Of a stretch of DNA of 64,000 nt, positions 24,630 to 52,760 are shown one piece after another. The first letter of the stretch is position 1. The number at the start of each line of letters is the position of its first letter. This DNA is from Callorhinchus milii. Lineage: Eukaryota. The stretch is taken from contig NW_024704742.1 of NCBI RefSeq assembly GCF_018977255.1, positions 115,570,001 through 115,634,000 of the forward strand, read 5' to 3'. The translations under genes were made by a program, and so were the position numbers. The notes beneath the pieces were generated by a model. It was not told the DNA's origin. It saw only the letters and a program-made list of their open reading frames with translations, and did no database searches.

Positions 24630-25105
24630 TCAAGCAATATAATGGTTAAGCTTTGTTAAGACGTCCTTTAGGCTTTTGACATTATAGTTTTCATTGAGAT
24701 TATCAAATAAGTAGCAAACATTGTTATATTTGTCAGCTTCAATTCCATTCTGCAGAAATTCTTCATTGACCAGCAGGTCCTCCTCGTCTTCACTCATCAC
24801 TCTCTCTTTATCTTCGTTGGCCAAGTCTCTGAAATTATGAAGTGGTCTTGCTGCTTTCAGGGACAGATCTTCTGGTACATATAGCTTGTCATCTCTGCAA
24901 TACTCCTCAGGGCTATACTGTCCCATTGTATAGTAGTTGTCCTCATCTTCCTCATGACAGGAGCTTCCCTTGGCACTCTCTCCATCCGACTGAGAGAAGC
25001 TTGTTTTTACTCTGCTTTTTTGGGAAAGATCAAAGGGTTCTTCCTGCTCAAAGTTGCTCAGTAGATTGGCCTGGGAAAATACACTTAGTCCTCTCCTCCT
25101 GAAGC
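24630..25105 (-). CDS. ZNF366: ZNF366 last coding exon (PFDLS CtBP motif, acidic region, stop)
   Basis: Acceptor tctatttcattttag|GC completes the AGC codon. Encodes FRRRGL...EQEEPFDLSQK...QSDGESAKGSSCHEEDEDN...SLKDVLTKLNHYIA, then TGA at 24632-24630. The spliced total of 2136 nt is divisible by 3. Confidence 0.9.
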
Positions 25106-25309
25106 CTAAAATGAAATAGAACAATACATTCATCAGCTATCACGTCATTTAGTTTAACAATCTGGGTAGATAATCATTACAATATATTACCAATGAAAAT
25201 GCATATGTTTCTTAAATAAATACAATCGATTCAATTAAGTTACAGATATATCAACTCTACCGACTAACCATCCTCTAGATTAATTGGTCATTCACCTATT
25301 TGCCGTTTG

Positions 25310-38943: not shown

Positions 38944-39981
38944 AATACCTTTCGATGTCTGTCTTGACATTACACTTTGCGGCCATGAACCTGTGCCCTC
39001 TTGTTCTGCTGTCTTTGTTATCTGCAAGTATGTGGTGGGTTTACTTTCTCAGTTTAAAATCCTAAATACTGTACAAGGTCCCCTCTGAGTTTCCAAGGCT
39101 GTTTCATTCTTGTAACATTAAGATCATTGATTACTCCCTTCTCATTACATCATAGCATCATCACCAGAGCACTTGGCCCCTCTTCTGAGATATCCAGTTT
39201 AGTTTTAAAACTGGCGGAGGGGAATTTCACATTGAAAAATAAACTTTTTGATAAATAATAATAATAATCCTTGCATTTGATATAGTACCTTATCACGTCG
39301 TTGAGACATCTCAAAGCGCTTCACAGGATATACTGTAAAGTGAATTGACTGCATATTTTCAATCAATAAAAAANTAGGATAAATCCGAACTTCCTCCTGT
39401 ATATTCTGCACATTTTCAGTTATGCTTCTAACACTCTTAACGTTAAATGTATGTTGTGAATATTAGAAATATCTTAATTTCTGTAATATTTCTACAGTTT
39501 TACTACAATTTATCAATCTACTGGGATGTACTGATATAACTCTCACTCATATAAATAAAATATAGAAAGGACATGTCACCAAGGATCAATGATCATGAAA
39601 GGGATCTAACCCTATCTTAGACCTAGAATGAATGACCTGGGCTGTGATGGTTGGGTCATGAATGCTAAAGTGTTGTTGTATGCTTCCAACAATTTCTTTA
39701 TATTTTGCTTTTATCATAAAAATTTTGTCAATTTCAGGTACTAAAATGTTCTAATAATTTATGTGGGCATTTATACTCAGTTTTATGAAAACAGAAATTG
39801 TGAAGTTTGGCCACGCATCAAGACACAGGGGACAATAATTCCCATTGTGACTAAGTGACTTTTTCTTGTTCCAATAAATGAACAAATAAATTCTGTACAG
39901 TTTTGCATATAGATAATCTACCAACCTCCTTGAGATGATCTGAATGAAAGGTCACTTTGTCTTTAGACACAAGATTCTTAC

Positions 39982-41274
39982 CTTGTGAGTTAAGGAGTGC
40001 TGCTTGAGATGGTGGGGTTGAATGAATTCCATCCCACATTCAGTGCAGATGTAGGGACGGATATCTTTGTGTTTCATCATGTGATTTTGAAGCTGACTTG
40101 GATACTGGAATGTTTTGTCACATTCATTACATTGATACAGAATGGGACCTCGGTGAGACGTCAGATGTCGCTTTAGCTGGGCTAGAGTGGGGAAGTCCAG
40201 TCCGCACTCCACACAGATGTTGTCTCGACCATTTTCATGCTTGGTTTCATGGGCTTTGAGCTCACTTGGATAGGCAAAGCCTCTTCCACAAATGCCACAA
40301 GTATATGGTTTCACATCACTGTGCTGCATCATGTGTCGTTTGAGATGACTAGTTTGTGTGAAGGCCTTGTTGCAAACAAGGCATTTGTGAGGTCTGGTAC
40401 CCTGATGTGTCAGCATGTGAGTGTGCAGGTGGCTCAGTTGTTTGAAGAGCTTCCCACACTGAGAGCAAGCATGAGGCTTAATACCACTGTGCCCCAAGAT
40501 ATGTGTCACGAGGTTATATTTGGATGTGTACGACTTTTCACACATTCGACATTGCCAGCGTTTCTGATCGCCACCCACATCAACATAATAGGTATCATCA
40601 ATCTTAATGTTGACATCAACTCTTTCGACCCTGTTTTTCTGACCATTTTCTTCTGCAATATGGAAGCCTCCAATGGGATATCCAAGTAGATCATGATTAT
40701 AAAAGGGATGTCTAAAATGCAGACTTGGTGGTGCCATAACAAAAGGGAACATAAATTCAGGATGAATATTAGCAAAGTATGGCCGGGGAGAGTGCATCAT
40801 CAGAGGACTTGCTGGCCACATCACGTTATGCTTAATGGATTCAGGTTTCAATCCCATAGTACCAAGATGATCTAAAGTTCTGAAGAACTGAAATCCTCCG
40901 TTGCTCAAGTCTATCATCTGGGCACCGGCTGTGGGTTTTGGTGATGGTATGTCCATCTTGATGTCTTCAGGCTCTTCCATTTCTATTGAAAAGTCGTCTA
41001 ACCGGGAAGTGTGAATTACTTTTGTGGGAGTGCTTTTCCGCTTACGGGACCCTCCTTCAGAGTTTACAGGGAATCTTTCCAGAGTTGGGGTAGACACATC
41101 CTTCCCAGAATACATGATGCCCGATTCATAGTTGTCTCTAAAGATTGTATATTTGTTTGGTTTAGCAGTAAGTGAAAGAGGCTGCATCGAAAATTGTGGA
41201 GAAGTCTGTATTTCCTTAAAATCTCTGAAACTTGGAATATGTTCATCCATTTTGATGATGTACTTGCTCTCCAT
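39982..41274 (-). CDS. ZNF366: ZNF366/DC-SCRIPT first coding exon (N-terminal region and C2H2 fingers 1-7)
   Basis: The ORF from ATG 41274 contains RKRKSTPTK and IDDTYYVDVGGDQKRWQCRMCEKSYTSKYNLVTHILGHSGIKPHAC...HLKQHSLTHK, which matches ZNF366 as I recall it. It ends at the donor AAG|GTAAGA (intron starts 39981). Length 1293 nt, phase 0. Confidence 0.93.
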
Positions 41275-41819
41275 GGATGTTACCTCTGATTTTTTCCTTT
41301 AAAAAAAGAGTAAATAAAGTTATAAATAAATGTATTTATAAATTTGAGGATAATTAAACCAGTCCGTTTTAATTCAATATTAACTCTTAGCCACCTTAAA
41401 AAAACAGAAATTCAAAAAGCCAACAAAATAGATGCTGTAAATAGCTTTTTAAGAGTTAAAAACATGAAGAATTATCATTTGTACAAATTTCTCTCAATTT
41501 ACCGGATCAATATAACTAACAGATATAGATTACATCTCATTCAAATTTAAACTCCAATGAAGTTATAATTTAAATAATTCAGACAGCCTGGAATAAATAG
41601 AGTGCCATGTATTTTATTTCTGTCCGTCCTGCATTTGCTCACTATTTTATTAGTGCCTAACCAGTGAAAAGCATGTATCTCTGTAAGCTTTAGTGAGGTT
41701 CAAATTGGATATTCTAAACCTTTAGAGAGACACTGAACTATCATTCATAGACTCGTAGAAAATACGGCACAGAAGGAAGTCACTCAGGCTATTGCAGCAA
41801 AGGTGGGGATAGCTCCTTC

Positions 41820-42248
41820 ACCTATTATATTGATGTGAGTAGCGATCAGAAACAATGGCAATGTCAAATGTGTGAAAAGTCAAACACATCCAAATATAAC
41901 CTTGGGGCACAGTGGTATTAAGCCTCATGCTTGCTCTCAGTGTGGGAAGCTCTTCAAACAACTGAGCCACCTGCACACTCACATGCTGACACATCAGGGT
42001 ACAAGACCTCACAAATACCTTGTTTGCAACATGGCCTTCACACAAACTAGTCATCTCAAATAACGCATGATGCAGAACAGTGACGTGAAACCATATACTT
42101 GTGGCATTTGTGGAAGAAGCTTTGCCTGTCCAAGTGAACTCAAAGCCATTGAAACCAAGCATGAAAATGGTCGAGACAAGATCTGTGTGGAGCACGGACT
42201 GGACTTCCCCACTCTAGCCCAGCTAAAGTGACATCTGATGTCTCACCG
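41820..42248 (+). pseudogene. Inverted, disabled duplicate of ZNF366 coding sequence 40151-40593 (fingers 1-5)
   Basis: Aligns to the reverse complement of 40151-40593 with 26 substitutions and one 14-nt deletion (hand count). It has a frameshift near 41902, TAA at 42061 and TGA at 42229. Confidence 0.95.
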
Positions 42249-44395
42249 GTGATTTTAAATGAGCACTAAAACCGCAAGAGAATGTACTTTTGGTTTCTTT
42301 CTGATCATAGCCAGAAAGGCCATGTTTTCAGTTACTATGCCCCATAGTCTCTGGAACTCCCTTACTTTATCCCTCTGCCTTGTTCTTTCTCTATCTGCCT
42401 TTAAGTCCTGCCTTGAAACAAACCTCTTTGACCAAGCCTATGGCCAATTCCTCCTTCCCCCTCTCCCCTTTATCTTGCTCGGTGACTAATACTGCATCTG
42501 TAAAGCACTCCGATACATTATGCCATTGGGAGGGAGCTAAATAAATACAAATTGTGCTTGACCTACAAATAGATATGTTGCTGTTTCTGAGAAGAAAACG
42601 TGTTCAGATTATATCATTGCTATGGTGATGCGTTTCCGCATTTGTAAAACACCCAGTGGTCAAAGATAATTTACTCATGTTTTTATCAATGGGAAGATGT
42701 TATCAACAAAGTCGATACCAAGTTATAACTCAAAGGTGTTTGTCTCAGGCTGAAAGAAGGTATTCGAACACTATATGGATCACTGATGAGGCATTTGGAG
42801 TGTTACAATATCAGATATGTTAACTTCAAGAGAAATTTTACAGAATAGCATGAAGGACAGCACCATGATGATGCAGCTCCCCATTGAATAATACTATCCA
42901 ATGTTACTTTTATATAGCTCCTTTCACTTTGAGGTGATGTCCTAAAATGTTTAACAGCACTGGCTAGGCACCCAAACTGTGGGTGGGAGCCAAGAGTGCT
43001 GGGAAGAGGAAAGATGACCAAAAGTGCAAAAAAGTAGGCCTTGAGACAGACTTGAATGAAGTGGAGTTCCAGAGAGTGAGGGTAGAAAGGCTGAAAGCGC
43101 ACCTGCTGATGGTGGGGCGGGAAGGGGGGGTATATTGAAGCAGGCCAGCGCTTGCCGTGTGAAGGGAGTGGCTGGTTGGTAGGAGTTAAAGAGTTCACAG
43201 AGATAGGATGGAGCGAGACTATGGATGAATTTAAAAGTAGGAACTCACAATTTACTGATACAGAGTTCTATCAAATGGACCAAATCAACAATATTAAATA
43301 ATGGCTTGATAGGTCTTTGGCTAATGTAAGCAGTGGAATCTTAACTGTGGAAAATAGAAACATAGGAACATATTCTGTTCTTTTAGACTGTTCTGTCATT
43401 TTATTTGAATATGGCAGATCTTCTAATTCCATTTCCCCACCTTTCTCAACATCCCTTTTGTAGCCCTTATTTCCCAAGTAAAAGATACCAAATCTGCTGC
43501 ACATTACTGCCAATTATTCTGACTGTTCAAATATTATTGATGCGCAAACGAGATGGAACAATTTTTTGAGAAGGCCTTGTCTGCACACATGGCAAACTTT
43601 GTTTGTTACTTAGAAGCCTATGTGAATTTCCAAGATCCATAGTGAGGGCAGAACCATAATAATAAATAATAATCCTTGTATTTGATATAGCACTTTATCA
43701 CATTATTAAGATGTCTCAAAGCACTTCATAAGATATACTATAAAGTGAATATTACTGTAAAGTGTATTTTGTGCATGAAATGCGGCATCCAGTTGCGCAC
43801 AGCAATGTTCCACAAACAGTCATGGAATGAGTGACCAACCTGGTGATCCTAAGAGGAAGGCAATACTGAGGGAATAGAGAGTTTCACAATCTTGACAGTC
43901 ATTCCACATCAACCTGTGAAAACATTCTCCCGATGTAAAAGACCCTATGCCAAATGTAAAGATTATTATTATAAGCTCAGGGTTCTTGAAAATGCATTAA
44001 ACTTTAAATAGGACTATTGCAGATCGAAGAGGGGAACCGACATTGAGTGGGAAATGACACATATTTGCTGATCCATCTAATCCTGCTCTCTACCCTGGTT
44101 CTTGGAATGTATTCCTCTGCTTAGTGCCAGAAAAAATCACATCCTTTTTGTAAGACACGCCTATGCTTTCTCAAGGGAGAAATGTTTGTCTGAAAGAGAA
44201 TAATAACTAGATAAACACAGCTGTCGATGTCATCAAACTGAGCATTGGCTTGAGAGAGTTTCAGCAATGAAACAAAGCAGCAGCTGATATGTGGTTGGCC
44301 TATCTGCCTTAGCAACTACAAAACCCAGGCAATTATTTTTGGTGAGCCGAGTGTCTGACACATGTGGAAATCGATCACCATGGTAAGAGTGTCCA

Positions 44396-52450: not shown

Positions 52451-52600
52451 CAGTGTCCTCCCTTAATGTCTACAGAGAGCTCTCTCCTCTGTACCTGCTC
52501 CTTGCAGCCTCTACCCAGATTTGATTAAAAAAGGAACTAACTGTGACAGAGTTTGAAGCTACAGAAGAAGGAACAGGAACAAAATCACTTCGTTCTCTTT
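52451..52600 (-). other. ZNF366: Candidate non-coding first exon of ZNF366 (5' end approximate)
   Basis: Perfect donor CTG|GTAAGT (intron starts 52450) in repeat-free sequence, next to an ETS-motif cluster. The first coding exon has a pyrimidine tract and AG just upstream of its ATG (about 41297), which implies an upstream exon. Confidence 0.5.
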
Positions 52601-52760
52601 TTTTTCAGATGAGTACCTTCGGAAAAAAAGGAAGGAAGGGAGGGGAGAGGAAGCCAACAGCCCTTTGACTTCCTGCAAAAAAATAAGGAAACTCCAGATA
52701 ATCATCTTTCTCTGAGAAAAAAAGAGATTCATATGGAAACAACAAAAAAGGAAATTAGAT
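52520..52760. promoter_or_regulatory. Candidate ZNF366 promoter with ETS/PU.1-type motifs
   Basis: AAAAAGGAACT (about 52527), CACTTCGTTCTCTTT (52586), AAGGAAGGAAG (about 52628), GACTTCCTGC (52668), AATAAGGAAAC (about 52682) and AAAAGGAAAT (about 52747) all fall within about 230 bp. Confidence 0.4.

Follow-up and report, generated by a model that had tools for sequence, protein, structure and literature searches.

Hairpin and pseudogene-derived endo-siRNA loci are long inverted repeats that originate from protein-coding genes. Inverted exon copies within a single gene are described in the human genes CHM (exon 12, PMC8756506) and MANBA (exons 8-11, PMC6549551), and the available parts of both reports attribute these intragenic inverted duplications to FoSTeS/MMBIR. 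As presented there, the copies are recent, perfect and pathogenic, include splice sites and cause exon skipping. The MANBA case is also described as having lost 67 nt at the insertion point (PMC6549551). Short-range template switching is portrayed as widespread in ape genomes in the accessible text of Walker et al. (2021, PMC7954356), where it appears as small mutation clusters. An imperfect exon-intron inverted repeat able to form a pre-mRNA duplex is the editing-complementary sequence of the GluA2 Q/R site, whose helices, in the account consulted, are short, conserved across vertebrates and needed for the demonstrated edit (PMC3553965).

The window analysed here was the whole stretch of 64,000 nt of the Callorhinchus milii genome. 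On its minus strand it carried an exon of ZNF366, and a reverse-complement partial copy of that exon was located nearby. The following features were delimited.

39982 to 41297, minus strand: ZNF366 exon 2 with the ATG at 41274 and fingers 1-7; boundaries placed from the sequence and the continuation of protein P0002
41299 to 41298 (acceptor AG) and 39981 to 39980 (donor GT), minus strand: splice sites of exon 2, read from the sequence
40151 to 40593, minus strand: source arm within the coding exon, fingers 1-5 of 7, from the alignment
41820 to 42248, plus strand: inverted partial copy of exon 2, fingers 1-5, from the alignment, the genome search and junction-spanning contigs
41901 to 42002, plus strand: perfect run of 102 nt after the deletion in the copy, from the alignment
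52451 to 52700, minus strand: candidate non-coding exon 1 together with its candidate promoter, bounded by a CTG/GTAAGT donor, with no ATG and with ETS-like motifs nearby

The gene at the locus was identified as ZNF366 of Callorhinchus milii. The frame starting at the ATG at 41274 was 100% identical over 430 residues to P0002, the annotated 711-aa zinc finger protein 366 of this species, which begins at the same ATG. The next protein matches were shark ZNF366 with 78-79% identity. The last exon was near 24.6-25.1 kb. It contained a PFDLS motif (24630-25136, minus strand), which we take to be of the CtBP-binding type. Exon 2 encoded seven C2H2 fingers behind an acceptor AAG/G at 41298/41297 that was preceded by a pyrimidine tract, and further finger exons were found near 34.2 kb and 28.2 kb; the consulted part of PMC4501824 gives a total of 11 fingers for ZNF366. 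Between 41298 and 56000, minus-strand donors of the form GT(A/G)AG(T/G) were limited to 52451, 53454 and 53460; the interval from the acceptor to the copy had none. On this sequence pattern, a transcription start near 52.5 kb is plausible. Because the donor candidates are confined to these three positions, the copy probably sits in intron 1 and is co-transcribed with exon 2. The ETS-like motifs near candidate exon 1 were purine-rich.

In the local alignment, the copy was the reverse complement of the exon 2 segment in two ungapped blocks, one of 81 nt (exon 40593-40513 with copy 41820-41900) and one of 348 nt (exon 40498-40151 with copy 41901-42248). They held 26 substitutions in 429 columns (93.9% identity) and were separated by a 14-nt deletion in the copy after 41900. 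Between the exon arm and the copy lay a spacer of 1226 nt, and no other inverted repeat that the repeat finder listed in the window was longer. When the 991.5-Mb genome was searched at DNA level, only two places matched, the copy and the exon (E 7.6e-178), so that the element is a reverse-complement copy of nearby unique sequence, as expected of a local inverted duplication. The copy reads as sense on the plus strand and would therefore be antisense in the minus-strand pre-mRNA. Distances from the source arm were 704 nt to the acceptor and about 170 nt to the donor. A stretch of 119 substitution-free columns (41884-42002) spanned finger 2 plus its flanks, and the perfect run within it is possibly a gene-conversion tract or a CpG-poor stretch. 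A coding function of the copy was ruled out by its frameshift and stop codons and by a dN/dS of about 1.1. The copy arm alone showed no independent structure (z -1.15). No inverted repeat was present in the 4.1 kb inspected at the closest paralog locus (56% identity). An initial annotation of the locus had named the gene ZNF366 and had given the coordinates, the 26 substitutions, the 14-nt deletion, the perfect run, the spacer, the acceptor and the ATG. The match to P0002 bears out the gene name, and all counts were correct in the alignment.

The same annotation regarded the copy as no artefact of assembly, and short reads agreed. Run X1 provided one 1462-nt contig over 40469-41930 that spans the left junction and the deletion, and one 897-nt contig over 42199-43050 that spans the right junction; this run may come from the assembly's own sample. 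Since these short-read contigs cross both junctions, an assembly error is excluded. Runs X1-X3, three samples of one study, held 0.90-0.93 of the words, against a ceiling of 0.83 without the copy. The fourth sample of that study, X4, held 0.84, which is near the ceiling and decides neither way.

Sequence from two relatives was available, organism B (run X14) and organism C (run X19); Callorhinchus milii is lineage A in the comparison with B. A 3161-nt contig of organism B aligned to 39410-41308 and 41465-41816 and continued with 689 letters that did not align at 80% likeness. A second contig aligned from 42250 onwards and was preceded by 598 unaligned letters. Both alignment ends lay within 4 nt of the ends of the copy. 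Given that the flanks differed at just 43 of 352 letters on one side and 39 of 286 on the other, an orthologous copy in B should have aligned. Because the contigs of B track both flanks to the edges of the copy and then carry other sequence, the copy looks lineage-specific and appears to have arisen after the A-B split, with orthologous flanks on two contigs and no single contig bridging the site. Related species had been proposed earlier as a check on the copy; organism B has other sequence at the site. Most simply, at least about 690 nt of different sequence gave way to the copy, or B gained an insertion at this position; the copy may also have been lost in B. Zero depth over 41840-42205 in X14 and X19 reflects lack of cover and was not counted as absence. 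The contig of organism C ended at 41571, short of the copy, and is uninformative on it. If organism B is a chimaera of another family, the A-B split would date to the early Mesozoic according to the consulted section of PMC11521621.

Two further observations were made in the relatives. In X19, one contig (depth 25) joined 40693 to about 41073-41093 and omitted about 380-400 nt of exon 2, and depth reached 122 at 40540-40693 as compared with 15-60 in the surroundings. Either a deletion allele or additional partial copies of exon 2 in another species could account for this; the short side of the contig has 30 letters. The 156 nt at 41309-41464, just upstream of the acceptor, corresponded to 153 unaligned letters in B with both sides aligning, and are either a fast-changing A/T-rich stretch or a small inversion.

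The edges of the copy had the following features.

41800 to 41823, no strand: left junction with the inverted microhomology AGGTG...CACCT, which overlaps the first bases of the copy; the flank alignment of organism B ends at 41816
42243 to 42252, no strand: right junction with the palindrome TCACCGGTGA; CGGTGA also occurs at 40151-40156 on the plus strand; the flank alignment of organism B starts at 42250
42317 to 42560, plus strand: fragment of an old dispersed repeat, beyond the right end of the copy, that matches other members of the repeat in the genome at 68-81% identity and aligns in organism B too

Inverted matches of 4-6 nt were thus present at both junctions; matches this short can be chance, and the ancestral junction letters are not visible. 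From these letters, the microhomology at the left junction is a possible trace of snap-back priming. Neither a poly(A) nor a target-site duplication was visible at the junctions. The left flank had no second genomic match that would mark it as a truncated repeat, with one weak hit in a 200-kb sample. The copy might instead be a fragment of reverse-transcribed ZNF366 RNA that LINE machinery inserted as a chimera with the neighbouring repeat fragment. The copy has the same orientation as that fragment, which begins 70 nt to its right. Deamination of cDNA leaves an excess of G>A on the sense strand, as is found in the copy (see below). This origin is very improbable, given that the copy lies 1.2 kb from its source, comprises an internal exon fragment only and lacks the two hallmarks looked for at its junctions, and that the repeat fragment predates the copy because it has an aligned counterpart in organism B.

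The copy is instead likely to be a neutral, one-off scar of template switching or templated break repair in the Callorhinchus germ line, as far as we infer its mechanism, intronic position and lack of function. Synthesis would have stalled or broken in intron 1 at about 41819 and resumed on the opposite strand at 40593, a jump of 1.2 kb. From there, 443 nt of exon 2 would have been copied backwards before a return at about 42249, with several hundred bases of older intron probably replaced by the copy. The copy would since have decayed at a roughly neutral rate. If the pre-mRNA runs through it, a brief exon-intron duplex would form, perhaps with incidental editing. ZNF366 would tolerate this because both splice sites fall outside the stem.

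The copy-exon distance was 6.3% (26/429; raw 95% confidence interval 4.0-8.8%). Non-CpG positions had changed in 19 of 409 cases (4.6%), as compared with 7 of 20 CpG positions (P 6e-5). The dN/dS of about 1.1 came from 21 nonsynonymous changes on 346 sites and 5 synonymous ones on 92. If the exon is constrained, nearly all of this distance would fall on the branch of the copy. The flanks of A and B differed at 82 of 638 positions (JC 14.1%), half of which is 7.0%. Purifying selection has little room because 6.3% is close to this value, and the sequences suggest decay of the copy at a roughly neutral rate. A copy that postdates the A-B split would have accumulated change at the greater part of the neutral rate, and by non-CpG sites its age would be about two thirds of that of the split. 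This reasoning presupposes that A and B evolved at equal rates and that B never had the copy rather than lost it. The initial annotation had interpreted the copy as a built-in antisense element against the DNA-binding domain, had taken neutral-rate decay as a sign to the contrary, and had offered a neutral local inverted duplication as its own alternative. Decay at roughly such a rate was found, and the antisense element is unsupported: B has other sequence, divergence is about neutral, CpG sites have decayed and similar duplications recur. The site in B, the near-neutral divergence, the CpG decay and the recurrence fit the neutral alternative better.

The copy may nevertheless act as an incidental pre-mRNA duplex, as predicted by folding. 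The long duplex expected earlier for minus-strand 42300-40100 was obtained in silico, with 416 copy-exon pairs in the minimum-energy fold and a predicted copy-exon duplex of about -798 kcal/mol. Acceptor and ATG were placed in short local helices of the predicted loop. Masking of splice sites of the CHM/MANBA type does not apply, as the stem stops 704 nt short of the acceptor and about 170 nt short of the donor. Strong skipping of exon 2 would presumably be selected against, because it would remove the ATG and 7 of the 11 fingers. A stable exon-intron duplex, as in an ADAR editing-complementary sequence, was present in silico only. The helix did not have the conservation of such a sequence, with other sequence in B, about neutral divergence and a weak, post hoc wobble bias. 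Four runs that are RNA by guess, X5-X8, held 0.51-0.54 of the words, as compared with 0.549 expected for an unaltered spliced exon and 0.306 for a fully altered arm, and were not counted as evidence. One of them, X5, gave an exact contig of 151 nt at 42382-42532 with a depth of 2.6, which could derive from pre-mRNA or DNA. None of its contigs aligned to exon 2, probably because contigs resembling human sequence are filtered out, and contigs also lose rare variants; no join between candidate exon 1 and exon 2 appeared.

The substitution spectrum contained weak hints of kept pairing. All tests of wobble, energy, clean run and skew were post hoc and chosen after the data had been seen. Among non-CpG changes in the copy, seven were G>A and none C>T (P 0.005, uncorrected). 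A G>A change in the copy turns a G-C pair of the pre-mRNA duplex into G·U. Changes that leave G·U numbered 13 of 26, as compared with 8.2 expected (P 0.029; overall 0.03-0.05 for the pairing hints). The duplex was more stable than simulated decay with P 0.047 under the empirical spectrum and 2 of 150 under a simpler null. The 119-column clean run had P 0.004-0.046 depending on the model, and 0.096 when the deletion was counted as an event. Repeats were symmetric in G>A and C>T both in the ZNF366 gene body (28/470 versus 23/363) and in intron 1 (11/146 versus 8/102), which leaves unsupported the idea that the skew stems from a transcription-linked strand bias of the region.

These hints could mean that selection has retained an accidental copy because it pairs with the DNA-binding exon in the pre-mRNA, either as an ADAR editing-complementary sequence or by slowing splicing or export, which would damp the dose of ZNF366 in dendritic cells. 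The predicted duplex of 416 bp, the excess of G·U-keeping changes and the duplex energy point this way. So do the absence of the skew from neighbouring repeats, the position of the clean run over finger 2 with its flanks and the persistence of the copy for long enough to lose 6%. The overall divergence is near-neutral, however, and organism B carries other sequence at the site, whereas the GluA2 helices are conserved across vertebrates as far as the cited text goes (PMC3553965). Pair-breaking transversions were not depleted (8/19 as compared with 7.5 expected). C>A changes were skewed in the same direction without saving pairs (4 versus 0, P 0.13). Four other local inverted repeats gave 8 of 16 wobble-keeping transitions; gene strands in that count were derived from reading frames, and three of the four loci were not blindly chosen. 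A general wobble bias in local inverted repeats was rejected (21/34 including the ZNF366 copy, P 0.23). ADAR edits long near-perfect duplexes promiscuously, and with a near-perfect 430-bp duplex, fingers 1-5 would be edited indiscriminately instead of being selectively recoded. Retention by selection is for these reasons considered unlikely. A slightly less likely version is a copy domesticated in the elephant-shark lineage, in which the 430-bp partner of the exon would be kept by G·U-tolerant pairing selection, perhaps with gene conversion, and would recruit ADAR or delay splicing; its effect would be the recoding of fingers 1-5 or the tuning of the dose of a dendritic-cell regulator.

Other aspects of the spectrum relate to DNA. 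Five adjacent doublets occurred among the 26 changes (P 0.012-0.042). As read on the minus strand, 15 of the 26 changes were C>T or G>T, as cytosine deamination and guanine oxidation usually produce, and clustered mutation in single-stranded DNA at breaks is a known topic. Together with a clean run in excess of random expectation, this would agree with a neutral copy that is active as DNA. Its arms would occasionally recombine or pair in single-stranded DNA, exon-to-copy conversion would refresh tracts like 41901-42002 and part of the skewed spectrum would have been laid down at birth or during repair in single-stranded DNA, so that the copy could be older or younger than 6% suggests. Such activity appears rather improbable, as the signals weaken to P 0.05-0.10 once CpG content and doublets are modelled. 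It is also compatible with the scar and would refine rather than replace it. An AID signature was rejected because only two of the seven non-CpG sites lay in a WRC context, the motif of AID. Altogether, chance, gene conversion or single-strand damage explain the skew and the clean run at least as well as selection.

Local inverted duplication is a recurrent event in the Callorhinchus milii genome. Blind samples (20 x 10 kb, 200 kb from one chromosome) and the window were searched for inverted pairs of 80 nt or more with a gap below 5 kb. Of 89 such pairs, 87 were in dispersed repeats and two were unique, namely the ZNF366 copy and a pair at locus L020. The latter had a length of 108 nt, 93.5% identity and a gap of 763, and was unique genome-wide (L020:111-218 and 982-1088; G000:C1:75000111-75001088). 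The rate of unique local inverted pairs was about 5 per Mb with a 95% interval of 0.13-28, which is very loose because the blind sample covers 200 kb on one chromosome. Outside the blind sample, at picked loci, inverted repeats were present at CLNK (102 nt, 96%), SEL1L3 (about 80 unique nt) and TBC1D9 (100 nt, 90%). The ZNF366 copy was the longest of the five local inverted repeats compared and overlaps a coding exon.

The L020 pair was located 3.4-4.3 kb downstream of a minus-strand frame of 414 aa (L020:4446-5690), presumably the last exon of a TET gene, and one of its arms retained three CpGs lost by the other. At the CLNK locus, a 19-bp perfect hairpin (L030:770-811) marked the end of an inverted exon copy, a clearer snap-back junction than that of ZNF366. 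Dispersed repeats covered about 25% of the window. Repeat-derived inverted pairs of about 78% identity were found in ZNF366 introns at 36998-37203/38025-38226 and 43656-43838/44892-45067. Because the introns hold several such pairs, the potential for intronic duplexes is not rare in ZNF366 pre-mRNA.

As a neutral scar, the ZNF366 copy is ordinary. It offers a clean natural test, as editing in the 443 nt of exon 2 that pair could be compared internally with the 870 nt that do not. Were editing or constraint to prove true, an exon would have been caught in the act of giving rise to its own regulatory editing-complementary sequence. No earlier report of an inverted exon copy in ZNF366 was found in the open-access literature searched. 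The likeness to endo-siRNA loci lies in the long inverted repeat from a protein-coding gene, but one arm of the ZNF366 pair is intronic and would be parted from the other by splicing. With the GluA2 editing-complementary sequence, as presented in the consulted part of PMC3553965, it has in common an imperfect inverted repeat between exon and intron that could pair in the pre-mRNA; it differs in being long, lineage-restricted and subject to about neutral decay, and its editing role is only putative. A local switch to a nearby template would be common to ZNF366 and the events in the accessible text of Walker et al. (2021, PMC7954356), whereas the ZNF366 event comprises 443 nt and a 1.2-kb jump. 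The closest counterparts, as far as the available descriptions go, are CHM exon 12 and MANBA exons 8-11, with which it shares an inverted exon copy that probably likewise sits in an intron close to its source exon, short matches at the junctions that may be microhomologies, and a predicted pre-mRNA hairpin. Unlike these, the ZNF366 copy is old (94% identity), is present in several sequenced samples and holds only the exon interior, with the splice sites outside the stem. The ZNF366 copy is therefore most likely a further case of a known class, local inverted duplication by template switching or templated repair, in which a long, near-perfect antisense copy of an exon interior has long been tolerated with the splice sites outside the stem, as opposed to the pathogenic copies in CHM and MANBA.
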